Notes: generated by a model not told the origin, from the sequence alone. DNA of 64,000 nt from Rhodospirillaceae bacterium (GCA_002718345.1 PBDA01000031.1:17260-81259); one strand, 5' to 3'; shown: positions 13,995 through 64,000, counted from the first letter of the stretch. Program-made: numbers and translations.

Positions 13995-14892
13995 CGCAAA
14001 CTCTTTTAGAAAAAATCTCGAACTCTATGCTGAAAGAGTTAATACCCACCTTAAGGCCATCATAGATGCCCAATACAAAAGTGGTGCTCCTCAAGAACTC
14101 ATTAAAGCTATGCAATATGCAGTACTTGGGCCAGGAAAACGAATTAGACCCGTTCTGACTTATGCGTCTGCAGAACTTCTTTCTCTCAAAGCAGAACAAG
14201 TAGATTCAATTGCTGCTGCAGTAGAACTCGTACATACCTACTCCTTAATACATGACGATCTCCCTGCTATGGATGACGATGATTTGCGTCGTGGTCGTCT
14301 GACCACTCACAGAGAATTCAATGAAGCAACAGCAATTCTAACTGGTGATGCTTTGCAAGCTATTGCATTTGAAGTGCTCTACAGCGACCATTTTTTGAGA
14401 AAAGATAATGCTGCTCAAATTGAAACTATAGGGTGGTTAGCTAAAGTTTCCGGGCCCAAAGGAATGGTTGGAGGCCAATTGCTAGATATAGAAGCAGAGA
14501 AGGGTGTAACTGATGAAGAAGGAATAGCTAACATTCATAATCTAAAAACCGGGCAGTTAATAAGAGCCGCTATCATGATGCCTAGCGAATTATCCCAAAT
14601 CACTAAAGAAGCAAAAACAAAACTTGATGAATTTGCAAGTTTGATTGGTCTTGTATTTCAAATAATAGATGATCTACTAGAGACTCAGCAAGATACAGCC
14701 GTATTAGGCAAAAGCTCTAAATCTGATATGAAAAAAAATAAAGCTACTTACCCATCTGTATTAGGTGCTGACAAATCTTATGACAGAGTTCATAAGCTAT
14801 ATGATAACTCAATGAAAGCTTTAGATTTTTTTGGGAAAGATGCTAATACTTTACGTTGTGTTGCAGATTACATAATCAATCGTTCACACTGA
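13978..14892 (+). CDS. ispA: (2E,6E)-farnesyl diphosphate synthase
   Basis: 304 aa with the FARM motif LIHDDLPAMDDDDLRRGR and the SARM motif FQIIDDLL. It is divergent from the squalene-synthase-like gene. Confidence 0.9.
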   Translation: MISRTNANSFRKNLELYAERVNTHLKAIIDAQYKSGAPQELIKAMQYAVLGPGKRIRPVLTYASAELLSLKAEQVDSIAAAVELVHTYSLIHDDLPAMDDDDLRRGRLTTHREFNEATAILTGDALQAIAFEVLYSDHFLRKDNAAQIETIGWLAKVSGPKGMVGGQLLDIEAEKGVTDEEGIANIHNLKTGQLIRAAIMMPSELSQITKEAKTKLDEFASLIGLVFQIIDDLLETQQDTAVLGKSSKSDMKKNKATYPSVLGADKSYDRVHKLYDNSMKALDFFGKDANTLRCVADYIINRSH

Positions 14893-14901
14893 ACAATCAC
14901 G

Positions 14902-16530
14902 TTATTCAAATAACCCTTTAGAATGCTGCTCTCTTAAAGTGGCTTTAGATATTTTTCCTGTTGCTGTATGTGGAATTGAATCTACTATATTCATTGAATC
15001 TGGAATCCACCAATCTGCCACCTTTCCCTTAAAGGAAGAAAGGATACTGCCCTGAACTGGGTCTGCTCCTTCAACACAAACTACTATTAGGTGAGGCCGT
15101 TCACCCCATTTTTCATCATCGATTCCAATAACAGCTGCTTCAGCCACATCAGGATGAGCAACAGCTATATTTTCTAGTTCAATAGAGCTGATCCATTCAC
15201 CTCCAGATTTAATTACGTCTTTTGTTCTGTCAGTAATATTTAGGAACCCCTGCTGATCAATAGTTGCAACATCTCCAGTTGAAAACCAACCCTCTTGATC
15301 ATGTGTTTCGCTATTATCATCTTCACCATAGTAGGCATCTGCTACCCACCATCCACGCACTTTAAGATCGCCAAAAGCCACTCCATCATGAGGCAAATCT
15401 TTTCCTTCATCATCCACTATTTTCATATCCACACCAAAAGGAGCTCTCCCTTGCTTAGCTCTTACTTTGTTTCTATCAGACTCTTCTAATTTATCCATGC
15501 TAGGTATCAACGTATTCACAGTGCCCAGTGGACTCATTTCCGTCATTCCCCAAGCATGATGTGTATATACCCCATGTAGTTTTTCAAATTCCTCCATAAT
15601 AGATATGGGACAAGCAGATCCACCGACAACAGTTCTATTTAAAGTGCCTATAGTCTTACCTGTATCTTTAAGATAAGCCAATAAAGCAAGCCAAACGGTT
15701 GGCACTCCCAATGCGATCGTTACACCTTCGTTCTCAATTAATGAGTGCAAAGTTTCACCATCTCCCATTTTTGGCCCGGGCAATACAATCTTTGAACCCG
15801 CAATAGGACAAGAATAAGGCGTTCCCCATGCATTCACATGAAACATCGGCACCACTGGCATAACAACATCATTGTGAGATAACCCTAGAACGCCCGCCAT
15901 ACAACTACCATAAGCATGAAGAACTGTTGACCGATGATCATAAAGGACACCTTTTGGATTGCCAGTTGTCCCTGATGTGTAACAAAGCGCACTTGCCGTT
16001 GTCTCTTCCAATTCAGGCCATGAAAATGGAGAATCATCTTGGGCAAGAAGCTCCTCATAACAATAAATATCCAACGAACTACTCTCAGGCATTTTTTCCT
16101 TTGAAGTCAGAGCCACAAAAGCTTTTACCGAGGATAATTCATCTGCCAAGCCTTCAAGCAAAGGTAGAAACATAGGATCAAAAAAAATAACCTGATCATT
16201 GGCATGACTAAAAATATAAGCCAATTGTTCAGAAAAAAGTCTTGGGTTTACTGTGTGCAAAACTAAACCAGAGCAGGAAACTCCATAATACAATTCCAAA
16301 TGTCGATGATCATTCCAGGCAAGGGTTGCAATGCGATCACCAGGTTTTACCCCTAGTCGTCTAAGCGCATGGGCAACTTGATTTGCTCGCTCAAATACAT
16401 TTTTATATGTACTCCGATGTACTCCCTCATCAGAAGTAATCGAAATTACCTCGGTATCATGGTAAAGCCTTGTGGCATAAAGCATTATCTCCGTTATAGT
16501 TAGAGGTGTGGACATCATTTTCCCACGCAT
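14902..16530 (-). CDS. AMP-dependent acyl-CoA synthetase (long-chain fatty-acid--CoA ligase family)
   Basis: 542 aa with the AMP-binding motifs [19 protein letters not shown] and IKSGGEWIS. Confidence 0.88.
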
Positions 16531-53344: not shown

Positions 53345-54295
53345 TCAGTAAATCACTGCTGGATTAACCGTTGAACCTGTTGCACCGAGTATCTTCAAGG
53401 GTTGCATTACAAATGCAAATTCATATACATCTCGTTTTGCAAGTTCATCCAGTTTTAAGCGTTCAAGCAAATGAATCCCGTTCACAACTAACATAATTTG
53501 ATGCACAGGCAGAGAGAGCTCTGGATCAGGGTTTGGCTGTACCTCTACTGGCTGATTATCGGCGCCTACAATCATAGGATTTTTAGCCGCAAGCCACTCA
53601 GCAGCCTCTACGCCAATGCCTGGCCCGCCACGCAAATAACGAGGGACATCTAACTCCCAAAGGACACCCCACCCCGTGTGAATAATTACAGCATCTCCAG
53701 ATTCAATTGATAAATCATGCCTTTCAAGCTCAGCCTGGATATCTTCAACTGTAATTTCATAATCTTCAGCTAGCATATCAACGCCTTTCAACTCAGCGAT
53801 ATCTAATAATATTCCCCGAGTCATAAGCATAGGCACATTCTCTATCCCAAGGCTGGTAAACCCATTTCGAGTCATTGTTTCATCAACCCGAAAACAGTTA
53901 TAAAAAGTATTACCTATGCTCTGATGGCTAAAGCCATCAAGCTGTGTACCAATTTGTCCAAGTTCGGTAACAACGAGTTCTTCATTTGATCCTCTTCTAT
54001 TTGACAAAGGATTCATCGATGTAGGCTTTGGAAAAAGATCAAAATGTCTTGATCCAAGCGGGATAGAGCCATGCAATACATTACCTAACTCAACAATTTC
54101 GCCTTGGCGTATCAATTGCGCTGCGCGCATCACCGCTGCAGGTCCCATGAGATTAGCAGAGCCAAGTTGGTCGCCAGCACCCCATTGAGATGGACAACGA
54201 TCTACTTCGGCTGGTGGAGTCCAAGACTGCGCTTCTACCATCTTCCAAGTTAGTGTATTCAGCATAAAAAATATCATGATTGAAAAAAATCGCAT
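53345..54295 (-). CDS. Secreted cyclase-family (kynurenine formamidase-like fold) protein with a variant metal motif
   Basis: 316 aa with a signal peptide ending VEAQS. It has the cyclase-family layout (GTQLDGFSH, IIHTGW). The canonical HxGTHxDxPxH reads QIGTQLDGFSH here. Confidence 0.75.
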   Translation of the reverse strand: MRFFSIMIFFMLNTLTWKMVEAQSWTPPAEVDRCPSQWGAGDQLGSANLMGPAAVMRAAQLIRQGEIVELGNVLHGSIPLGSRHFDLFPKPTSMNPLSNRRGSNEELVVTELGQIGTQLDGFSHQSIGNTFYNCFRVDETMTRNGFTSLGIENVPMLMTRGILLDIAELKGVDMLAEDYEITVEDIQAELERHDLSIESGDAVIIHTGWGVLWELDVPRYLRGGPGIGVEAAEWLAAKNPMIVGADNQPVEVQPNPDPELSLPVHQIMLVVNGIHLLERLKLDELAKRDVYEFAFVMQPLKILGATGSTVNPAVIY

Positions 54296-54410: not shown

Positions 54411-54438
54411 AAAAAAGGCACGCCCCAAAAGACGTGCC
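54411..54438 (-). terminator. Rho-independent terminator closing the 63.8-54.4 kb operon
   Basis: The minus strand reads GGCACGTC-TTTTGG-GGCGTGCC, an 8-bp stem including one G-U pair with a 6-nt loop, followed by TTTTTT. It begins about 20 nt after the OmpA-like stop codon. Confidence 0.7.
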
Positions 54439-54457
54439 CTGAGGATTAACCCGACCG

Positions 54458-55210
54458 CTACTGTTGGGCTACTCGATTGTTCTGGGTATTTCTGATTAGT
54501 GTTAAGTCAACTCGCCTTTCCATTGCCATCGCATCAACATCATTTTCTTCAGCCGAAGCGAAAGCTTCCCCATGCGCATTCATAATGACTCTGCTAGCAG
54601 GTACACCTCCTCTGACTAAAGCTTCCTTGACAGCAGCAACACGCTCCTCAGCAAGTTGCTTGTTATCCAACAATGAGCCACGAGCATCTGTATGGCCATC
54701 GATTCGAATCATAGTGTTATCAAGACGAGCTAATAACTCAGACAAACGAACAAGCCTGGACTCTGTTATATCAGGCAGTTTGCTTTCATTTGTTGTGAAA
54801 AGGACCTTGATATCAAGTGCATCAGTAACACTTGACTGCATTTGGCTATCATTTTCCTGTAACTCAGCCTCAAGCGAAGCAATGATAAATCCATTATCTT
54901 TGATTAAAGCATTTAGTGAGCGTACTTCTGCCTGCGCCTTTGTCCACTTGCGCTCATACTCAAATTGCGCAACATGCTTCATATCCAATATATCCCCAAC
55001 AAAAGCCCCCATTGCTGCGCCAAAAACCAACCCAACAGGACCTCCGGCAAGAGCTCCTATAGCTGCACCACTACCAATCCCAAGAGACTCGTGTTTTGAT
55101 TTTGATACTGCTTCAGAGGTCCAACCGCTAGATATGGACATGAGCAAAATTAAGAAGATGGTTATAGATCTAATCATGGCAAGGCTCCTTTGCTTCAATC
55201 GCCAGTTCAA
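54458..55210 (-). CDS. OmpA-family peptidoglycan-binding protein with an N-terminal Gly-zipper and coiled coil
   Basis: 250 aa. It has a signal peptide (probably from Met12, MIRSITIFLILLMSISSG) and the Gly-zipper GIGSGAAIGALAGGPVGLVFGAAMGAFVG. The OmpA_C motifs are RIDGHTDARGS, NKQLAEERVAAVKEAL and ERRVDL. Confidence 0.85.
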   Translation of the reverse strand: MNWRLKQRSLAMIRSITIFLILLMSISSGWTSEAVSKSKHESLGIGSGAAIGALAGGPVGLVFGAAMGAFVGDILDMKHVAQFEYERKWTKAQAEVRSLNALIKDNGFIIASLEAELQENDSQMQSSVTDALDIKVLFTTNESKLPDITESRLVRLSELLARLDNTMIRIDGHTDARGSLLDNKQLAEERVAAVKEALVRGGVPASRVIMNAHGEAFASAEENDVDAMAMERRVDLTLIRNTQNNRVAQQ

Positions 55211-55303
55211 GTTTTGGTACTGGCTATATTGAAGATCTACCGTGCCCTAGGACTGATCAAAACTAGCAAAACACTCAGAAAAAATGGCGAATTCTGACGA
55301 GGG

Positions 55304-56308
55304 TTATCCGCGTAACGAAGGTAACGCTACAAATGTGCCACCATTTCGCTGACATAACACTCTCATAAGTACCGCAAATCGGGCAGAAGACAGAAGTTCT
55401 CCATTGGTAACCTCATAATAGACTGGGAAAGCTACAGCATGTATTCGCACCCTCCGGGTACCATCTTCACCAGCCTGATTGCGTCTATCTACCTCTCGTA
55501 CAACGGCATTTATCGAGCCTGCAGAAAAATCGTCACTATAAACATAGAGGCTTATTTTTTTAGTGGGGTCATAGAAAGTTTCTATTGCCTCCAAAATACC
55601 TTCCCTAGGACTCGAATTTGAAAATGCTGACCAGTTTCTCAAACCATCAATGATGGCCTCTCTCGTCGACTCAGTATCAGGTATCCACTCATTACGATAA
55701 CTAGCAAACATATATTCGCCCATATCATTAAATACCTGTATTCCTTTCACCTGAGGATAGACTTGAAGGGTCTCAGTAACCTGTTGCTGAACCCGTGTCC
55801 ACGCGTAACGCTGCATACTTCCGGATGTATCAATAATAAAAATAATGTACTCGCTATCTACAGGTATTCCTCCAACCATATAATCGTCAGGGTCTGGCCT
55901 ATAGTCTGCGAGTAACCGTTGCATTTCCTCTGTTAAACGTTGTTTTGCCTGAGCTAAGCGTCCCTCCAATTCATTAGAAAACTCTGCATCACCTTGTGTA
56001 GCTAAAAATTCAGCCCGTATCCTTGTGAGCTCAGCCTGCAATTGCTCAATCTGGGTCTCAGACTGATCCACATTATCTATAGTAGCCAGTCTCTCCCTGC
56101 TAATGATTCTGGTCTCACCAAGAATATCCTCTAACTCCTGCTCATACTTGACTATGAGGTTCTCAAGCTCAACATGGGTCTCTTCCAACCTTATCGGCTC
56201 AAAGATTTTTGTAATCACGAGCAATAGGATTACTGCACCAAATCCACAACAGACAACATCTAAAAAAGAAAGGCTACCTGTATCAACATCTCGACGTTTT
56301 TTCCTCAT
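55304..56308 (-). CDS. TolR/ExbD-like TM anchor - coiled coil - von Willebrand A domain protein (paralog 2)
   Basis: I prefer Met20 of the track ORF as the start (MRKKRRDVDTGSLSFLDVVCCGFGAVILLLVI). It forms an ATGA overlap with the upstream stop and aligns with the paralog N-terminus. The vWA domain has the MIDAS motif DTSGS. Confidence 0.8.
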   Translation of the reverse strand: MRKKRRDVDTGSLSFLDVVCCGFGAVILLLVITKIFEPIRLEETHVELENLIVKYEQELEDILGETRIISRERLATIDNVDQSETQIEQLQAELTRIRAEFLATQGDAEFSNELEGRLAQAKQRLTEEMQRLLADYRPDPDDYMVGGIPVDSEYIIFIIDTSGSMQRYAWTRVQQQVTETLQVYPQVKGIQVFNDMGEYMFASYRNEWIPDTESTREAIIDGLRNWSAFSNSSPREGILEAIETFYDPTKKISLYVYSDDFSAGSINAVVREVDRRNQAGEDGTRRVRIHAVAFPVYYEVTNGELLSSARFAVLMRVLCQRNGGTFVALPSLRG

Positions 56309-57396
56309 GGCCAATCCTCTGAAGGAGCCATCATTGAACCTCCTGTGCTTAGCGCCAACCACCAATAAGATGGCGCTGATTGTGGATCACCTTCCATTGC
56401 ATAAAGAATTACATTTACCGGCACGTTAAAAGGAAGATCTCTGATAGCACGATTAAAATGTCCAAGACGTTCTCTTCCAGATACACCAGGATTTATGGGA
56501 TTTACCTCGCCCATAGTAGGCAGTCCATCAACAAGCAAATAAATATTGTCTGGCTTTGGGTCTAAAGGTCTCATGCTTGCAAAAGCGGCATGTAAACTTG
56601 TAGGTCCCTCAGGTACCGTTTCTCGCAAATTTTGTACAGCATCGTTGAGGAGACTCCCATCGTTAACTGTCTGCCATCGACCGTTACTGCCATCGATAAG
56701 ACTCCAAGCCTCATTATTGAATGCATAAATCTGTATTTGCGTGCCCGGTTCAATTTGGGTGGTCAACCAATCCACAGTATCAACTGCCTGGCGCCATTTA
56801 GGAGCTTGGAGTTTCTGTTCAACTGACATATTTCGGCGTCTAAGCACATTAACGATCGTGCGATCTAACATACTAGTTGAAGCATCTACCAAAATAACAA
56901 CACGATTTCCTCCCATTCTCAATCCTGTTAGATATTGACGATTTCCATCACCCGTAAAAGAACGAATGCGATCGCCAGCATCTTCCGGCGTGATGCTTGC
57001 AGCTGAGAGTCTCTGAGTCTCATTCTCCAGATCCTCCAACTCAGAGCGAAGCTGTTCAATTGCAGCTTCTCGTGCAGTTGAATCCGCCGTAAGAGTACTG
57101 AACTCCTCTTCAGTAGCCTGAATTTCAGTGACCACCTCTTCCCTTAAAGCACGCAAAACAGCTGATTCCTCGATAAGTGTTGCTAGATCGCTTTTGAGTT
57201 GCACAAGATTTTTACGCCCCGTCAAAACCTTCAGCTCTGCTCGATCTACCTCGCTTGCTAAATCATCGAGTACAGCCTCACGTCGTAAATCAATATTGGC
57301 ATTTATTATCATAAAAAATAGGATTACAGCACCAAAACCGCAGGTCATAGCATCAAGAAAAGATAATGAAAATACATTTAGAGATTTACGAGCCAA
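56305..57396 (-). CDS. TolR/ExbD-like TM anchor - coiled coil - von Willebrand A domain protein (paralog 1)
   Basis: 363 aa. The N-terminus is MARKSLNVFSLSFLDAMTCGFGAVILFFMI, followed by a heptad-rich Glu/Leu segment. The vWA domain has VVILVDASTSM (MIDAS DxSxS) and LLVDGLP. Confidence 0.8.
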   Translation of the reverse strand: MARKSLNVFSLSFLDAMTCGFGAVILFFMIINANIDLRREAVLDDLASEVDRAELKVLTGRKNLVQLKSDLATLIEESAVLRALREEVVTEIQATEEEFSTLTADSTAREAAIEQLRSELEDLENETQRLSAASITPEDAGDRIRSFTGDGNRQYLTGLRMGGNRVVILVDASTSMLDRTIVNVLRRRNMSVEQKLQAPKWRQAVDTVDWLTTQIEPGTQIQIYAFNNEAWSLIDGSNGRWQTVNDGSLLNDAVQNLRETVPEGPTSLHAAFASMRPLDPKPDNIYLLVDGLPTMGEVNPINPGVSGRERLGHFNRAIRDLPFNVPVNVILYAMEGDPQSAPSYWWLALSTGGSMMAPSEDWP

Positions 57397-58786
57397 TATT
57401 TCCCCCTACTGCGATGACATGCAATTCCTCCCCCGATGAGCCAATCCTAATTACATCCGCCGTATGTAAGTCAATCTGACTCGATATCTTTTTATTATTC
57501 ACATAAGCATTTGATCGATTCAAATCTATCAAGCGGAGCACCCCTTCCTTGCGAATAATTTCACAATAGGGCTGAGAAACAGTTGCTGGGTCTTCACCTA
57601 CTACTATGCTGTAAAAATTTTCATCATCTGCCTGGCTAATATAAATAGCGTCAGAATTAATAGCGTAGGCAATTCCACGGTATACCAAGTGTGTAGGCTG
57701 CAAAGGCTTAATAACATTATCACTATTACTTGAGGTTACTGACTTTTCTGACTGTGGAGTATCCAACTCAACCGCATCATCTCTCCAAGACAATCGCTTC
57801 AATAATTTCACTTGGTTATTAGTATGATTAATGTTTTTTAGACCCTTAAGCATACCCAGCGCGGCCTCACCGACATTCATTGATACCACATGCGTGTTAT
57901 CAATCTTTTCAAATTCGCTTGTAATGCCTGGTAACTGATGGAGACGATGAGATAATTGCACAACCAAACCAGTCTCCGGCTTTCGAAGTTGCGAACTAAG
58001 CTGTATCAAAGCCTTACAAAACCCATCTGCCACACCCAACAAATGTTCTCGTTGTATATTTACACAATACTCCTCTCCATTGTGCGAAATCTTTAATTCT
58101 GATTCTCCCTGTTCCTGAAGCTCAGCGAGCCAAACAGGCAAAAAATCGTAAACAAGTTGTTCAGTCTCTGCATGATGAAATGGATCAAAACGCGTCTGCA
58201 AAACAAAAATTTCCGCTACTCTAGCTGCCCACAAATCAAAAAGTGATGAAAGACCTACACTATCAAGCCCTTGCTCATGTTTTTCAAAAGCATCATCATT
58301 TTGCTCAATGACTGATGCTGAGACACGGTGCAAACTAGCGTCCAGATGAAGAATTTGATGGTTAGGATAGGGACGAGTACTTGCAGCAACACCGGCATTC
58401 GCCATTGCGCGCACTGGCATATTGCACTCCTGTGACATCCCCAATAAAAGACCCAATTGATCATGCGTGTAATGTGCTGGCGCCACTAACAATGCATCCA
58501 TATCACTTTGCCCGAATCGTTTCCATATTGAGTCAAGTTGGTTATAAGCTAATTCTGCTGAACTACCCACCGAATCGATACCCGCACTCCCTGATTCCAT
58601 GCTCAGGTCTTCCCAATAACGATTATTAGTCTGCCTTGGGTTAAGTCTTGCCTGAGAATATGCACCCAAACCAGTGACTACTGACCCATTAACTAATGCT
58701 GCATAACCAGGCTCTTTTGCTTTAACCCCATTCTGGTCAGCAATAACCAACTCAGCATCATTAATTTCAATGGCAAGAGTCTTCAC
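57386..58786 (-). CDS. Cytoplasmic protein: degenerate Hsp70/actin-like fold plus a C-terminal FHA-like domain
   Basis: 466 aa with no TM helix. AIEINDAELVIAD, LVAPAHYTHDQLGLLLGMSQECNMPVRAMANAGVAAS and ILHLDASLHRVSASV parallel the DnaK segments IDLGTTNS, ITVPAYF..QR...AGL.V.R.INEPTAAA and DLGGGTFDVS, but lack the Gly-rich phosphate loops. The C-terminus VSQPYCEIIRKEGVLRLIDLNRSNAYVNNKKIS...DVIRIG is FHA-like. Confidence 0.65.
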   Translation of the reverse strand: MKTLAIEINDAELVIADQNGVKAKEPGYAALVNGSVVTGLGAYSQARLNPRQTNNRYWEDLSMESGSAGIDSVGSSAELAYNQLDSIWKRFGQSDMDALLVAPAHYTHDQLGLLLGMSQECNMPVRAMANAGVAASTRPYPNHQILHLDASLHRVSASVIEQNDDAFEKHEQGLDSVGLSSLFDLWAARVAEIFVLQTRFDPFHHAETEQLVYDFLPVWLAELQEQGESELKISHNGEEYCVNIQREHLLGVADGFCKALIQLSSQLRKPETGLVVQLSHRLHQLPGITSEFEKIDNTHVVSMNVGEAALGMLKGLKNINHTNNQVKLLKRLSWRDDAVELDTPQSEKSVTSSNSDNVIKPLQPTHLVYRGIAYAINSDAIYISQADDENFYSIVVGEDPATVSQPYCEIIRKEGVLRLIDLNRSNAYVNNKKISSQIDLHTADVIRIGSSGEELHVIAVGGNIGS

Positions 58787-58795
58787 TTCTCCCCG

Positions 58796-59602
58796 CTATG
58801 CGCCCCCACGTGCCTGCATATGCCTTATAAGATTATGATCAATATAAGTTTGGGTATCGAATACTTGCCGTTCCTGTAGAAGCTGAAGTTGATGTACTAA
58901 AAACATAACTACAATCGAGATTAGCAGGGCGATAAAGGTACTATTGAAAGCCGTGCCAAGACTCTGAGTAACGCCCGCAATATCCCCGTCTACTGCACGA
59001 TGCGCCTGACTTAACGCTTCTCCAATTCCCCTAACGGTTCCAATAAAACCAACGGATGGAATTGCCCATGCAATGTAACGAATCATCGATAACTCAGACT
59101 CAAGGCGTTCACTTTCTGATTCACAAAGGGTATTTGCTACTGAAGATACATCCTGAACATTTCTAGTAGAACCAAAACGTTCAAGAGAAGACAAAAGCAC
59201 TCTCGGTAACAACATGCCTCGAATAGTATCTGGTAAAGCTTGGATAGTGCGCGCATATTCACGAGTATCTTCAGGAAGAATGCGTACCCCTTCCCTAATG
59301 GGCACCAATTCCTGTTGCAACAGCTGCCTCTCTCCTGTTGCCTTAAGCGCTTTAAATCCCATAATGGCAAATGCCCAAAGCATCAGAATAAAGCATGCTT
59401 CCTGTTCAAAATCTCGCACAAGAACATACAAGGAACGTTGAGGAGTGTAATTAGAATCTTCCTGTATACGTATAGTCTGTTCCGCTATGACAGCAGCAGC
59501 TTGTGGCCGAACTACTGTGACATAAACAGCATGAACAATTATTACAGCAATAATCAAAGCAAAAACCTGATACAAAAACTCATTCGGTAGATTTCGTTTC
59601 AT
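58796..59602 (-). CDS. MotA/TolQ/ExbB proton-channel family protein
   Basis: 268 aa with 3-4 TM helices. The channel-family core is AIPSVGFIGTVRGIGEAL...LGTAFNSTFIALLISIVVMF. Confidence 0.85.
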   Translation of the reverse strand: MKRNLPNEFLYQVFALIIAVIIVHAVYVTVVRPQAAAVIAEQTIRIQEDSNYTPQRSLYVLVRDFEQEACFILMLWAFAIMGFKALKATGERQLLQQELVPIREGVRILPEDTREYARTIQALPDTIRGMLLPRVLLSSLERFGSTRNVQDVSSVANTLCESESERLESELSMIRYIAWAIPSVGFIGTVRGIGEALSQAHRAVDGDIAGVTQSLGTAFNSTFIALLISIVVMFLVHQLQLLQERQVFDTQTYIDHNLIRHMQARGGA

Positions 59603-59635
59603 TACTTAAAGCTCACTACAATATGTAAAGACAAC

Positions 59636-59845
59636 CTAAATGTTTACAGGAAAAACAATTTCCTCGTCCGCACCAATTTCTTGGCTAGGTATAAAGATTT
59701 CATCAAGAGGCCGGGTATCTGGCTGAGGAGGGGGTGGTGCTGGTTCTGAGTGAGGCTCAGGTTCTTCTTCTGTCTCTTGGCTTACCGAAGCAAACGAAAA
59801 AACTCCTAGCAAAGCTATGGTCAGAACTGATCTTAATGCTGACAT
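59636..59845 (-). CDS. Small secreted acidic, Pro-rich protein
   Basis: 69 aa with the signal peptide MSALRSVLTIALLGVFSFASVS. The mature part is ETEEEPEPHSEPAPPPPQPDTRPLDE.... It is a short ORF but sits in an operon gap, with spacers of 44 and 33 nt. Confidence 0.5.
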   Translation of the reverse strand: MSALRSVLTIALLGVFSFASVSQETEEEPEPHSEPAPPPPQPDTRPLDEIFIPSQEIGADEEIVFPVNI

Positions 59846-59889
59846 TGACTAACCCCTAATTTACCTTTCCCAAACAAATCGATCATTAA

Positions 59890-62343
59890 TCATTCTAAAT
59901 TTCGAGCTATCCGAAAGCCGATTTTTTCATCGCCCTGCAAACTATAGTTCCTGGAAGCCAGTCGAAGATCACTTACTGTTGCGCTTCTCCAGCTAGCACC
60001 CCTAACAACATGAAAACGTCCGCTTTCTGGTCCTAAAGGATCTTCTTGAATTGCATCAGTTGCAACCCGCGAGACCCCATAGTAATCCTGTACCCATTCG
60101 GAAACATTACCTCCCAAATCAAAGAAACCTATAGCATTAGCTTCAAAACCCCCTGATGGCGATGAGACCGCAAAACCATCGTTATAGGTAACTAGCGTTG
60201 TAGGCAATATACTCGCAGCTGAAACATCAGCATAGTTTCCGGAACGATCTGGTGGTGGCAAAGACTGGCCCCAAGGATAAATAAGAGGCTCTTCCTGTTC
60301 TGCAAAACGGGCAGCCCATGCCCACTCTGCTTCTGTTGGAAGCCTATAACCATTCCTTAAAGGTCTAGCAAATTCCCAACGTCCATCCACTTGCTCATAA
60401 ACTGGCTGCAGCCCATCCTCAATACTAAGCCAGTTCATAAATTGCACTACATCTTCCCAAGCAATCCGTACAACAGGCTGATCTGGCTCATTAAGAGAGG
60501 CCCCAGAATAGCTCCCAGAATCATGAACAGACTGGAAAGCTTGAAATTCTCCATTACTGACCTCTTTCACTCCAAGGTAAAATGCTTTACTAATTTTAAC
60601 TGCCCGTAACGCTTCATTAGATCTGCGTCCCTGTTCTCTGCGCGAAGAACCCATCATAAATTCTCCTGGCAATACTAATCTGAGCTCTTGACCTAAATGT
60701 GTCTGTACTACTCTTGAATAACCTGAACCTGTCTCTGTATTTAATTCCTCTAAGCTTGCTTCCCATTTCTGAGGAAAACCTGGTCTCGGAGTGATACTCA
60801 TCGACCGCGATGTGAATCCTTCAAGTTGAACCGTTATCTCATGACTAACAGTATTAAGCTGAAGTTCTGCTGGGGTTGTACCCTGTAACTCTCCATCTAC
60901 AAATATCTGAGCTGCAGATGGATTACTCAATACCTCAACTGTTCCAAACTGAGGCACCAGATTAACCTCAACAATTTGTTGGCTATCCGCATCAACTACT
61001 AACTCCCGAGTCTCGGATTCATATCCAGGTCGAGTGAGGCCTAACATGTGTGTTTGACCAGGCCTAATACGGAGCATTAGAGGCGTTTGGCCCTGAAATA
61101 TACCGCCTACACTCACGGCAGCTCCTGGCGGATTACTAACAAGCTCAACCTGACCATCTGCCTCTATAAGCCTGACCTCTGGTATTACGATAGGTTCATC
61201 TGCTAAGACCACAAGTGAATCCCGCCATGGATTATGACCATCTAAGTGTAACTCCACGTTTCTTTCACCCGCTCCTAACTCTAGAACAAGAGGCGTTGCT
61301 CCAAACAAAACCCCGTCCACTAAAACCTCAGCCCCTGCTGGAAAGCTACTTATGCTTACTGGCGCCCAGCTAGGCGTAAGCGAGGTAGATAATGTTTGGC
61401 GTTCATGCCCCCCTGTTACATCAAACTCTTGTACTTGCGACAGATAACGCTCCGCTACATACTCAATACGATGCATACCAGGCCTAATCTCAACATCTAC
61501 TAATGGTGTTGTTCCAATAGATACCCCATCCACAAATACATCAATTGGCATATCAGGCTCTGCAAAAAAAGAAATAAGACCGGGCAACTTAGTAAATTCT
61601 AGTTGTATTGTTTGCGCTGGTAACTGCCCAACCTCAATTACTTCTTCTAAGGGGTAATACCCTATCAACTCAGCTGAAATTCTATGAGTTCCAGATCTGA
61701 GAAGATAACGACCTCCCATTTGAAATTTGAACAATGTACGCGGTAAAGATAGCTCCTCAGGAACCGGGTCTATGACAAACTCAACCGATTTTGCAGTGAA
61801 TGCAAACCAAGCAAATATTGCAAGAATGCCGAATGTGCTTCCAATAATCAGGCTTGAACGCTTGGGACGAAACCTTTCACCAAAGTTTTTGTTATTTATT
61901 TTCGGGCGAAATGAGATCGGCGCAATCTCTATTGCCTCTACTTTACCTGGTTCTTTAGCAATCTCTTCAAGGTCTTGAGTTTCTCCTTCAAATCCCTTCA
62001 TGTTTGCTGAAGTACGCACTGTTAAAAGATCGTCAAAAAGCGAACAGACTGCTGAAAAACTTCCCAGAGAAATCACCACTCCATCTTTCAACGACTCAGA
62101 CCCAGCAATCAATTGGTCATTAATTTTCAATCCACGTGTATTCTTACCTGATTGGATAAAGAATGTTCCATCAAGAACTCCAATCTGAAACGAGCCCCTA
62201 ATCTCATTTAGACAGATTTCACAATCATCTGTCTCTCCAATATGAACAGGAAGCTGTTCTTTTCCAAACCAACGGTTCTGACCGTTAGCAGAAATCCTTA
62301 GGGTCCAATCTTCTGGCTCTGTCATCAAATTGGCTCCATGCAC
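59890..62343 (-). CDS. FHA-like domain - TM - five PEGA repeats - FGE/SUMF1-like domain protein
   Basis: 817 aa. The N-terminal FHA-like segment is PVHIGETDDCEICL...FFIQ...LKINDQLI...GVVISLG and the TM helix is IIGSTFGILAIFAWFAFTA. The PEGA repeats include SFPAGAEVLVDGVLFGATPL and SNPPGAAVSVGGIFQGQTPL. The C-terminal FGE fold has LPGEFMMGS, EVSNGEF, GNVSEWVQD, VVRGASW and GFRIARN. Met7 (62325) is an alternative start, giving a TGATG overlap. Confidence 0.85.
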   Translation of the reverse strand: MHGANLMTEPEDWTLRISANGQNRWFGKEQLPVHIGETDDCEICLNEIRGSFQIGVLDGTFFIQSGKNTRGLKINDQLIAGSESLKDGVVISLGSFSAVCSLFDDLLTVRTSANMKGFEGETQDLEEIAKEPGKVEAIEIAPISFRPKINNKNFGERFRPKRSSLIIGSTFGILAIFAWFAFTAKSVEFVIDPVPEELSLPRTLFKFQMGGRYLLRSGTHRISAELIGYYPLEEVIEVGQLPAQTIQLEFTKLPGLISFFAEPDMPIDVFVDGVSIGTTPLVDVEIRPGMHRIEYVAERYLSQVQEFDVTGGHERQTLSTSLTPSWAPVSISSFPAGAEVLVDGVLFGATPLVLELGAGERNVELHLDGHNPWRDSLVVLADEPIVIPEVRLIEADGQVELVSNPPGAAVSVGGIFQGQTPLMLRIRPGQTHMLGLTRPGYESETRELVVDADSQQIVEVNLVPQFGTVEVLSNPSAAQIFVDGELQGTTPAELQLNTVSHEITVQLEGFTSRSMSITPRPGFPQKWEASLEELNTETGSGYSRVVQTHLGQELRLVLPGEFMMGSSRREQGRRSNEALRAVKISKAFYLGVKEVSNGEFQAFQSVHDSGSYSGASLNEPDQPVVRIAWEDVVQFMNWLSIEDGLQPVYEQVDGRWEFARPLRNGYRLPTEAEWAWAARFAEQEEPLIYPWGQSLPPPDRSGNYADVSAASILPTTLVTYNDGFAVSSPSGGFEANAIGFFDLGGNVSEWVQDYYGVSRVATDAIQEDPLGPESGRFHVVRGASWRSATVSDLRLASRNYSLQGDEKIGFRIARNLE

Positions 62344-63842
62344 TGAACTGTTATTGGTTCCAAATCACTGCCGGGTAGAACTATTAGCTCTTGTCTAACA
62401 TCTACATAACCGACCCTGCTACCTATCACAGTGTATGTGCCTGGCTTTAACTCCAACTGTTTAAAGAGGAATTTACCCATTCTACCAACACGATACACAG
62501 TCACTTCAGTCAGTTCATCAGAATAGATTTCCACTGGAATTGGCGTAGATGCTATCTGCACTAATCTACTGAGATCGCTAGTTTGTGACTCCAGTAACGG
62601 ACCTGGCTGTTGAATAGAATAAGCTTCAGTAAGCAGGGATTGTGCATCAGTCAAAGTTTGATCATTGAATAACAAATTTGGGTTTTCGATCAAATTTACA
62701 AGCTTTGCATCCAGGTCGTATCTAACGCGAGCTCTCAAAAGCCCTTGCTGAGCAAATTCTAGAGTATCATCGGTTTCAAGTGCTTCAGTGTAGAGCTGAA
62801 CTGCCATATCCCAAAGTTCTCGTGATTCAAAAGCAATAGCACGCGCCTCTGCCAACGCAATCTCATCAAGTCGCTGGCCTTGCTGGGCTTGTATCAAAGA
62901 GTTCTCTGCTTCTGGAGAATCTGGTCTGATTGCAAGTGCTTCTAGAAAAAAATTATTGGCATCACTGTACTCTTCCTCTGCCAAAGCTCTTAAACCTAGA
63001 GACATTAATGCATCAAATTCCCTATCAATGATGATAGCTTTTACTCCTTCCAATGCGGTCCTAGCCGGGTGCCAAAGCTCATCTATTACTAGGGCTTGCC
63101 TGTACCTTTCTGCCGCAGCTTCATAGTCTGCTGCATTTTCGTTGTCTTCCCCAGCCTTAACCAAAGAAAGTACCTCAGGCAGATTTTGAGCCCTTGCAAG
63201 ACCAACCTTAGCTATTGCATTTTCCGGCTCAATACTCAAAACCAATTGGAATTGCTCAAGTGCTAAATCTGAATTCCCCGCATCCAAAGCATTTGCTGCA
63301 GCAGATAGGGCGGCCTCAATAAGATTGATAGAACGTGTGAGCAAAATCTCGCCAGCATCTATTGCCTGAATGTAGGCTGGAACAGCATCATAAAATGCGT
63401 TGCTCAGATAAGCGTCATCACCTGCCTTTGCTAAAGCTTCATATTGTTCAAAATCCTCACCCCCCCAATCAGCTACCGACTGATCATCCAATTGTCCTTG
63501 CTGTGTGATGAGCTGTGCTAATAAAGCCTCAGCTTCTAAACGAAAAGCTTCTAGTTCATCAGGCGTGAAAACAGGTGTTTCTGGTTCAGCGACATCAGAT
63601 ACATCATCCAAAATAGCTTCAACCGGTTGAAGAGGTTCCTCTTCCACCCACCCGGGCAAAAAGAAAAAGACAATTACAGCAATGACTATCAATGCCCCAA
63701 GCCAAAGACTTGATAAGGGAACAGTTACTCCTTGCTTAGAATTTTCTGCAGAAGCAACAGACTTGAGGGATCCATGCAAACCGGGGTTAACCGGAACAAT
63801 GGCCTCATCTTTTCCGGAATCTTGCACTTTTTTATCTACCAC
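62325..63842 (-). CDS. Single-pass membrane protein with an acidic linker, TPR-like repeats and a C-terminal PEGA-like beta domain
   Basis: 505 aa with a GTG start and GAAGG 8 nt upstream. The TM helix is LWLGALIVIAVIVFFFL. Repeated Ala/Leu/Glu-rich TPR-like helices follow. The C-terminus is LKPGTYTVIGSRVGYVDVRQELIV. Confidence 0.75.
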   Translation of the reverse strand: MVDKKVQDSGKDEAIVPVNPGLHGSLKSVASAENSKQGVTVPLSSLWLGALIVIAVIVFFFLPGWVEEEPLQPVEAILDDVSDVAEPETPVFTPDELEAFRLEAEALLAQLITQQGQLDDQSVADWGGEDFEQYEALAKAGDDAYLSNAFYDAVPAYIQAIDAGEILLTRSINLIEAALSAAANALDAGNSDLALEQFQLVLSIEPENAIAKVGLARAQNLPEVLSLVKAGEDNENAADYEAAAERYRQALVIDELWHPARTALEGVKAIIIDREFDALMSLGLRALAEEEYSDANNFFLEALAIRPDSPEAENSLIQAQQGQRLDEIALAEARAIAFESRELWDMAVQLYTEALETDDTLEFAQQGLLRARVRYDLDAKLVNLIENPNLLFNDQTLTDAQSLLTEAYSIQQPGPLLESQTSDLSRLVQIASTPIPVEIYSDELTEVTVYRVGRMGKFLFKQLELKPGTYTVIGSRVGYVDVRQELIVLPGSDLEPITVQCMEPI

Positions 63843-63933: not shown

Positions 63934-64000
63934 CTATTCTTCAATACCGCTATCTTCCTCGGGCAAATCGCTCTCGGTTAGCTCAGGTTCTACTTCATCT
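63934..64000 (-). CDS. 3' end of an unidentified gene (acidic C-terminal tail)
   Basis: My own translation of the minus strand gives ...DEVEPELTESDLPEEDSGIEE followed by TAG at 63936..63934. Only 21 codons are visible, so the product cannot be called. Confidence 0.3.
   Translation of the reverse strand, partial: DEVEPELTESDLPEEDSGIEE

Follow-up and report, generated by a model that had tools for sequence, protein, structure and literature searches.

In the 64,000-nucleotide stretch of DNA from a Rhodospirillaceae bacterium (GCA_002718345.1 PBDA01000031.1:17260-81259, here called the window), positions 54,411 to 63,842 hold eight complete genes of the minus strand. We consider it somewhat probable that these genes form the distal part of a conserved ten-gene, envelope-spanning system coupled to the proton motive force (PMF), in which a MotA/TolQ/ExbB-type channel, g6, would act as the motor together with a heterodimer of two von Willebrand factor A (vWA) proteins, g8 and g9. 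The open reading frames (ORFs), recomputed from the window, are numbered g3 to g10, since two further genes, g1 and g2, lie upstream:

62325-63842, minus strand: g3, 505 residues
59890-62325, minus strand: g4 from an ATG start, 811 residues (the start adopted), or 59890-62343 from a GTG start, 817 residues
59636-59845, minus strand: g5, 69 residues
58796-59602, minus strand: g6, 268 residues
57386-58786, minus strand: g7, 466 residues
56305-57396, minus strand: g8, 363 residues
55304-56308, minus strand: g9, 334 residues
54458-55210, minus strand: g10, 250 residues

On its match to the Pfam family PF01618 (MotA_ExbB; 54.7 bits against a cut-off of 22.9, E 1.1e-14), g6 is a proton channel subunit of the MotA/TolQ/ExbB family, and by the NCBIfam models it is not an equivalog of TolQ, ExbB, MotA or ZorA. 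All 25 orthologs aligned keep two of its threonines, T189 (59036-59038) and T222 (58937-58939). A profile alignment with E. coli TolQ structures sets them against T145 and T178 (TolQ numbering counted from the alignment), the two pore-lining threonines of TolQ/ExbB channels. The candidate channel partners g8 and g9 are paralogs of 20% identity that share a basic N-terminus, the helix motif SLSFLDxxxCGFGAVILL, a coiled-coil region of about 120 residues and a vWA domain with the DxSxS motif. The sole membrane helix of each carries an aspartate (D15 in g8, 57352-57354; D17 in g9, 56258-56260) that is invariant across 29 sequences. In the g8 alignment F13, D15, F21, G22 and L26 are invariant, as are DxSxS and a C-terminal DWP, and the g9 family bears the signature GGIPVDSEYIIFxIDTSGSM. 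Residues 37-147 of g8 match coiled-coil-type families only; a stalk of about 120 residues, if helical, would by our estimate be some 16-18 nm long and place the vWA heads well into the periplasm. The vWA matches of the window proteins are weak (Pfam E 1.1e-3 and 1.7e-4), and across the family a VWA_2 match is obtained in 18 of 22 members, the best at 4.5e-10. The TTG start of g8, which preserves the SFLD aspartate motif, is the right one; database relatives are also 363 residues long. The automated g8 call on metagenome contigs (L001:12255-13298) begins at an internal ATG, yields 347 residues and drops 16 (window 57349-57396), Asp15 among them; because that call starts downstream of the SFLD motif, annotation-based surveys could miss this residue.

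Conservation of gene order argues that these genes work as one unit. Species-representative genomes were scanned with the Asp-helix pattern F[LM]Dx[IM][CST]CGFG, which gave at least 594 confirmed stretches (both paralogs match, so up to two per system), and 80 loci, designated here by L numbers, were retrieved and probed by tblastn with the ten proteins. The order g1-g2-g3-g4-(g5)-g6-g7-g8-g9 is found almost everywhere among them. Where at least 9 kb of upstream flank was available, 42 of 50 loci hold all eight detectable genes (g1-g4 and g6-g9), colinear and on one strand in 37 of the 50; in the five non-colinear loci MotA lies behind g9 (L011, L012, L017), the order is changed (L028), or g1-g4 are inverted downstream of the vWA pair (L043). 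The g9 gene follows g8 in 77 of the 80 loci; the three exceptions are loci where the contig stops or g8 itself takes the best match. Submitters' labels place the loci in Gammaproteobacteria (Woeseiaceae, Chromatiales, Pseudomonadales, Steroidobacteraceae), Acidobacteriota (Vicinamibacteria, Holophagae, Thermoanaerobaculia), Desulfobacterales, 'Deltaproteobacteria', Myxococcales and Spirochaetales. Even where the vWA proteins are only 33-35% identical the module is again found around them, as a full g1-g9 set in L088 and, in L087, as a separate Pkinase gene, a PEGA-FGE gene, a small ORF, MotA, a g7-like gene and the vWA pair. All-against-all clustering of the ORFs in these neighbourhoods gave no other conserved gene family, no TolR/ExbD/MotB and no transcription factor, nor does any window protein match a TolR, ExbD or MotB profile. 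The g8 family is large, with more than 4350 proteins at E<=1e-5 in a collection of 5.8 billion sequences and 1281 representatives in a library clustered at 50% identity (287 at E<=1e-30); the cluster members of ten distant vWA representatives were proteins of metagenomes or metagenome-assembled genomes (MAGs) only, with no cultured host found.

An arrangement that reappears in dozens of distant genomes with its gene order unchanged is far beyond chance. The proposal that the genes are chance or partly related neighbours, with no single system behind them, can point to the weak TPR, vWA and FHA calls in the window proteins; it is refuted by synteny, the order being kept at phylum-level distances, small ORF included, with start and stop codons overlapping at three of the seven junctions among the eight genes, and we find it scarcely credible. 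The earlier note on this DNA had proposed that the genes form a single functional unit centred on a MotA/ExbB-type channel and its Asp-bearing anchors, a proposal to be abandoned if they proved non-syntenic elsewhere. Their order recurs in several phyla, and the parts list and topology it predicted are borne out by domain searches and hydropathy.

The central part of this system has been described before. A 2025 study, 'Origin and Evolution of Bacterial Periplasmic Force Transducers' (Mol Biol Evol, PMC12204202, section 8, Fig. 4c-d), reports transmembrane (TM)-anchored vWA pairs with a TolR-like Asp helix, encoded beside a tolQ-like gene without tolR, models their Asp helices with AF3 inside a TolQ-like pentamer, and proposes on computational grounds that these TPH-vWA pairs form a 5:2 force-transducing motor. 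The cluster corresponds to TPH-vWA in its tight association of a tolQ-like gene with a heterologous vWA pair, in the Asp helix, the Thr ring and the lack of tolR/exbD, and in its wide occurrence in Proteobacteria and beyond; this likeness is one of described features, as PMC12204202 gives no accession for its Idiomarina loihiensis seed proteins. The companion genes (two lipoproteins, kinase-TPR, FHA-PEGA-FGE, small peptide, Hsp70-fold/FHA and OmpA) are not described in that paper, and the cluster is not described in the eLife 2020 paper on vWA conflict systems or the mBio 2025 MotAB survey. The literature searched yielded no account of the kinase link, of the g5 motif, of the Hsp70-fold/FHA protein or of the gene set as a whole. 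The earlier note's claim of an undescribed machine hence has to be given up for the channel and vWA-pair core and, within that literature, holds for the remainder.

Among these companions, g7 and g3 point to an ancestral phosphorylation switch. The AlphaFold2 (AF2) model of g7 (pLDDT 85.9) has DnaK/Hsp70 nucleotide-binding domains (NBDs) as its top Foldseek matches (E 1e-16), so that the Hsp70/actin-like call made earlier for this 466-residue protein was right, and g7 is modelled as a cytoplasmic Hsp70-NBD/actin-like (ASKHA) fold followed by a C-terminal FHA domain. It has no TM segment, no Pfam family and no Pfam or NCBIfam Hsp70 match, and its homologs carry PF00498 and PF16697. The Hsp70 phosphate-2 loop has the consensus DLGGGT. 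In g7 this loop reads DAS/GLHRV, and the C-terminus is an FHA domain in place of the Hsp70 substrate-binding domain; g7 was accordingly rejected as an Hsp70/DnaK chaperone, the fold matching the NBD but the sequence profile, phosphate loops and C-terminus differing. In the FHA domain (57386-57700) almost every ortholog has the phosphothreonine-binding residues S-R-x-H, for which the window reads S-Q-P-Y...N, and at the site of the G-R found in many orthologs it reads S-Q; a strict 'GR' was dropped as FHA marker, as many orthologs from intact-kinase loci have G-S or G-T, and S-R-x-H...N was used instead.

In most lineages g3 is about 780 residues long, its N-terminal part being a Ser/Thr kinase domain of the Hanks type (Pkinase E 3e-30 and 2.9e-29 in the orthologs L049:2717-5059 and L027:2601-4934). 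By tblastn, 43 of 56 loci have the kinase domain immediately before the TPR region, with intact HRDxKxxN and DFG motifs in 25 of the 43; the domain is absent from the window, as judged by tblastn of its entire length, and from its sister contigs. In the clade nearest the window (L007, L008, L010-L012, L016, L017) the kinase is present and degenerate, with DFA for DFG and HRD often lost, and at L007:2785-3537 it is a separate ORF of 250 residues; these degenerate forms look like intermediate stages of kinase loss or of pseudokinase evolution. As raw locus counts with no correction for phylogeny, the g7 FHA signature S-R-x-H...N survives in all 20 loci whose kinase is intact, in 6 of 11 with a degenerate one and in 0 of 6 without kinase, the window included. 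This co-variation argues that kinase and FHA reader work together, and the kinase carried on the TPR protein explains the presence of FHA domains. The kinase-TPR fusion is taken as ancestral to the system, so that the window has a derived version that is independent of the kinase. The kinase fusion in g3 and the parallel FHA decay are new findings of the present analysis. A comparable arrangement is known from the type 6 secretion system (T6SS), where an envelope machine is under the control of PpkA, a membrane-spanning Hanks-type kinase whose sensor domain is periplasmic, acting by way of the FHA reader Fha1; the cluster differs from that pathway in having no T6SS genes and no PP2C phosphatase in the conserved set, and in the window it has no kinase.

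The ancestral receptor-type Ser/Thr kinase and the two FHA domains could also be taken to mean that the system is mainly a signalling device, in which the channel/vWA assembly and the TPR-kinase sense the envelope state or a ligand and relay it via FHA domains without mechanical work. The vWA and TPR domains are ligand- or protein-binding modules, as such a device would need, and the distant locus L087 has, besides its separate 735-residue kinase gene, a sigma-70 family gene and a stand-alone FHA protein of 141 residues (14132-15195) about 2 kb downstream of the vWA pair. We regard this view as improbable: the defining residues of energised MotA/TolQ/ExbB motors are conserved in the channel, along with the invariant Asp of its partners, no transcription factor is conserved in the cluster, and the window lineage has lost the kinase and the FHA residues with all other genes intact, which argues that the machine has a function independent of phospho-signalling.

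The proteins expected on the periplasmic and wall side are g3, g4 and g10. By hydropathy g3 has one hydrophobic segment (residues 37-69) after a short cytoplasmic tail; its TPR matches are weak and below cut-offs, and it ends in a PEGA/CarboxypepD_reg-like beta domain. The g4 protein consists of an FHA-like N-terminus, a TM segment (residues 163-191), four to five PEGA domains (Pfam PEGA 1e-39 in four stretches) and a C-terminal FGE-sulfatase fold (6.3e-40). The profile of its N-terminus matches FHA structures at E 4.5e-6, with the canonical GR/SxxH residues absent. Aligned to human FGE, g4 has Ser and Val at the positions of Cys336 and Cys341, so that its FGE-fold domain is without the two catalytic cysteines of a formylglycine-generating enzyme. 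Matches to PorK structures (8.5e-12), to the NCBIfam GldK/PorK model (its best, 7.8e-27) and to PvdO are below family thresholds. A secreted protein with a Pfam OmpA match (1.7e-13) and a weak Gly-zipper match, g10 is predicted to be a glycine-zipper/OmpA-like peptidoglycan-binding accessory component; of 58 loci, 22 have an OmpA homolog no more than 3 kb downstream from the vWA pair. At six loci (e.g. L072:8127-8927, ORF family F19) a lipoprotein of about 266 residues with no Pfam family occupies the position of OmpA after the vWA pair and may be an alternative accessory component. In a proteobacterial sortase system that acts on a vWA-domain protein, PdsO is the OmpA-like partner; it is also the NCBIfam model closest to g10 (TIGR03789), at 107.5 bits against a cut-off of 152.2, and with no sortase in the cluster g10 is not assigned to PdsO. 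The pairing of an OmpA-like with a vWA protein nevertheless recurs in the two settings.

The FGE-like domain of g4 recalls the type 9 secretion system (T9SS), which likewise combines a 5:2-type motor with a non-catalytic FGE-fold protein (PorK/GldK). The same motor might then serve the export, assembly or movement of a surface structure in the manner of T9SS/GldKLMN or Agl-Glt, with a periplasmic FGE-fold ring and the vWA heads as adhesin handlers, instead of a Tol/Ton-like part in envelope maintenance or force transduction. The GldK/PorK and PorK matches of g4 speak for this, as does the Agl-Glt machinery of Myxococcus xanthus, which joins a TolQR-type motor, the FHA-TM-periplasmic protein GltG, TPR proteins, outer-membrane lipoproteins and the vWA adhesin CglB; the terminal motif of g5 (see below) could be a cargo or sorting signal. 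The resemblance has its limits. The GldK/PorK model TIGR03525 gives g4 94.6 bits, far below its 350; g4, unlike the lipoprotein PorK, combines an FHA domain, an internal TM segment and PEGA repeats and bears no lipobox; PorL/M belong to another channel family, and neither GldLMN nor other T9SS genes are present, so that membership in T9SS was rejected and the likeness stays an analogy. As to Agl-Glt, the vWA domain of CglB belongs to an outer-membrane adhesin and not to a channel axle, AglQ/S are true TolR homologs, and no GltA/B/H barrels, GltI or MglA/AglZ partners were found in the cluster. Because the conserved set is without PorL/M/N, Sov, GltA/B/H or any outer-membrane barrel gene, encodes only one obvious cargo, the 69-residue peptide, and occurs in many lineages, so that no single motility lifestyle is implied, a secretion or gliding function is unlikely, though worth keeping in sight.

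The small protein g5 and the lipoproteins g1 and g2 are the operon's own candidates for a partner of the vWA heads. Secreted, acidic and Pro-rich, g5 has a signal-peptide-like N-terminus, and the small ORFs in its position end in F-x-P-[ST]-E-x-[IVL]-x-x-D-x-x-[IV]-x-F-P-x-D-I-stop. A strict regular expression, F-x-P-[ST]-[EQ]...D...F-P-x-[DN]-[IL]-stop, matches at 50 of the 80 loci and at 0 on the reverse strands, always directly upstream of the MotA gene or, where MotA is relocated, of g7, and the motif is present in the distant L088 as well. On these counts g5 can be taken as a genuine conserved gene; this C-terminal motif, shared across phyla, is likewise a new finding of the present analysis. 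At L059:6266-6725 ('Olavius sp. associated proteobacterium Delta 1') two small ORFs stand between g4 and g5, which by eye from sequence are like a ribbon-helix-helix antitoxin and a RelE/ParE-type toxin. The features of g5 and g2 that bear on this are:

59639..59698, minus strand: C-terminal motif of g5, IFIPSQEIGADEEIVFPVNI then stop codon
63934..64000, minus strand: 3' end of g2, cut by the window edge, with its stop at 63934-63936 and a frame ending ...DLPEEDSGIEE and stop
L001:4368-5669: full g2 gene, 433 residues, N-terminus MRKFVISLLIMSAVALAGC then T, lipobox LAGC then T

The g2 protein, which has 747 homologs and no Pfam family, is found in synteny at most loci. Its modelled N-domain shows a weak likeness to that of TolB, to LptE and to PelC (Foldseek E 1.6e-3 to 3e-2, low TM-scores), which is a hint only. 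On the same scaffold g1 (L001:3543-4338) is a low-complexity lipoprotein (lipobox LVGC then I) with no Pfam match and a conserved C-terminal helix, DDDIVArQLREAA..E.DP.LRE.LW.EY (DDDIVARQLREAA...LWxEY). Its QS/QG repeat spans a run of N, an assembly gap, in the TARA scaffold, so that the length of g1 read from it is nominal.

Comparison with characterised systems, among them Bat/MoxR, Agl-Glt, TonB2/Ttp and Zorya, which the earlier note had listed as identities that would undo its proposal, has given none that fits. Tol-Pal is close in logic, with its TolQ-family channel bearing both pore threonines, its Asp-bearing single-pass partner, its envelope-spanning design and its TPR, OmpA-like peptidoglycan-binding and lipoprotein components in one operon. 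In contrast to Tol-Pal, the cluster is without a TolR periplasmic domain, a TolA/TonB-type transducer and a beta-propeller TolB; it has the coiled-coil-borne vWA pair as output module and FHA/kinase regulation in addition. Membership was rejected on scores (TIGR02796 29.8 against 221; Pal 43.4 against 125) and on the lack of TolR, TolA and TolB matches. ExbBD-TonB/Ttp was likewise dismissed, with no ExbD or TonB_C in the eight window proteins and no Pfam match in g1 and g2; a TonB_C protein stands upstream in one distant locus only, L088. For Bat/MoxR-vWA there is no AAA+ or DUF58 gene in the operon or among its conserved neighbours. The possibility of a Zorya-like anti-phage defence, with the MotA/MotB-type channel as sensor, arises from weak PADLOC matches to ZorA (5.7e-4, g6) and ZorB (5e-8, the OmpA domain of g10). 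These reflect shared MotA and OmpA domains only, beside coiled-coil noise, and NCBIfam ZorA scores 15.1 against 500. There are no ZorC/D or other effectors of the nuclease/helicase kind, tblastn of g8 against 72,556 plasmids gave no match, and Woeseiaceae-labelled loci share the genes downstream of the cluster, in a stable housekeeping setting that suggests vertical inheritance rather than a defence island; such a role is very improbable.

If the eight genes do belong to an envelope-spanning, PMF-coupled system, its working could be pictured as follows. The g8/g9 heterodimer would stand in for TolR/ExbD/MotB as partner of the g6 channel, and proton flow through the g6 pentamer, via the Asp pair ringed by the conserved threonines, would turn or pull the g8/g9 stalk, so that the vWA heads could do mechanical work on a periplasmic or outer-membrane partner, for which g5 with its acidic C-terminal motif and the lipoproteins g1 and g2 are candidates. 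A wall-anchored periplasmic scaffold would be provided by g4, g3 and, where present, g10, with g4 perhaps at the rim of the channel and its PEGA and lectin-like domains in the wall zone, on a plan like that of GltG; the FHA-TM protein GltG of Agl-Glt is predicted to dock on the AglR pentamer, which offers a precedent for g4. The cytoplasmic face would be formed by g7 and the FHA domain of g4. In most lineages, Thr phosphorylation by the g3-fused receptor kinase, read by the g7 FHA domain, would control the machine; in the window lineage, with the kinase lost and the FHA reader decayed, it is presumably constitutive or otherwise regulated. What the sequences show is the gene content and its conservation, the motifs, the channel residues and invariant Asp, the obligatory pairing of g8 with g9 and the joint variation of kinase and FHA domain; we infer the 5:2 assembly, the force transduction and the partner of the vWA heads.

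Several points weigh against this picture. The profile match of g6 to TolQ structures is weak (E 3e-3), and a single-sequence phmmer search with g6 against PDB sequences gave no match. An Asp-helix profile run against the PDB found no TolR/ExbD/MotB, only a chance NDUFB4 match (E 2.2), so that homology of the helix to TolR cannot be claimed, and the 'TolR-like' status of g8 and g9 derives from pattern and context. The AF2 model of g2 is poor (pLDDT 60), and the prediction that g1 and g2 are outer-membrane lipoproteins comes solely from the +2 rule (Ile and Thr, respectively, at +2), while the proposed ligand of the vWA heads is speculation. The kinase and FHA counts, as said, are raw, and the taxon labels are those of MAG submitters. 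Co-transcription is inferred from gene spacing, and no experiment on any member was found in the literature.

To our knowledge, MotA/ExbB/TolQ-type 5:2 motors are the only means by which diderm bacteria deliver inner-membrane energy to the periplasm and outer membrane, and their outputs, namely flagella, TonB uptake, Tol-Pal division, gliding, T9SS and Zorya, are each a major topic. It is quite possible, if short of probable, that the present system is a fourth widespread class of PMF-to-envelope machine beside Ton, Tol and gliding/T9SS, in which the in-channel subunits are themselves long force-transducing arms acting on a secreted micro-protein and outer-membrane lipoproteins, under an ancestral receptor Ser/Thr kinase switch read by an actin-fold/FHA protein. 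The family is large and present in several phyla abundant in marine sediments, soils and the ocean, and the three-gene core of the literature is extended here to a defined system of nine to ten genes. It offers experimental handles in the motor Asp and Thr residues, the metal-ion-dependent adhesion sites (MIDAS) of the vWA domains, the conserved 20-residue peptide terminus and a kinase/FHA switch with natural 'off' variants such as the window.

The layout of the locus agrees with much of what had been reported of it. The eight minus-strand ORFs of the earlier note are present in the recomputed list, and all its junction distances were obtained again from the ORF coordinates: a TGATG overlap at 62325 between g3 and g4 (with the g4 ATG start MTEPEDW), gaps of 44, 33 and 9 nucleotides at g4/g5, g5/g6 and g6/g7, an overlap of 11 nucleotides between g7 and g8 (57386-57396), ATGA at 56305-56308 between g8 and g9 (the g9 ATG giving MRKKRRD) and a gap of 93 nucleotides between g9 and the TTG start of g10, or 126 if its ATG at 55177 is used. 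The hairpin and T-run were found at 54440..54415:

54415..54440, minus strand: terminator-like hairpin with T-run, an 11-pair stem with 6 G-C pairs and a 4-nucleotide loop, then TTTTTTGTT

The description as terminator-bounded applies to the 3' end only, for the window's final 67 bases code for the C-terminal end of g2, on the same strand. An operon of eight genes is also too narrow a term, with two conserved lipoprotein genes further upstream and OmpA downstream in only the 22 of 58 loci given above.

An identical g6 protein is encoded on 19 contigs from metagenome assemblies, marine ones among them. One of these contigs, the 69-kb TARA scaffold L001, has g1 and g2 on the same strand ahead of g3, divergent and unrelated genes upstream of g1, and, past the terminator, a cyclase-family gene followed by biotin and phosphomannomutase genes. 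The cyclase-family gene (53345-54295 in the window) was rejected as a further operon member, lying beyond the terminator and not being conserved beside the cluster. At L001:1046-1786, about 1.8 kb ahead of the operon start and with two opposite-strand genes between, there is a DUF4159 gene that is not conserved beside the system; DUF4159 is often found with Bat-type vWA/MoxR clusters. The identical proteins P0001 and P0391 (CMM56_05815, CMM56_05845) carry the MAG label 'Rhodospirillaceae bacterium', and their close relatives are all labelled Gammaproteobacteria or Candidatus Rariloculaceae, so that the first label may be a mis-assignment.

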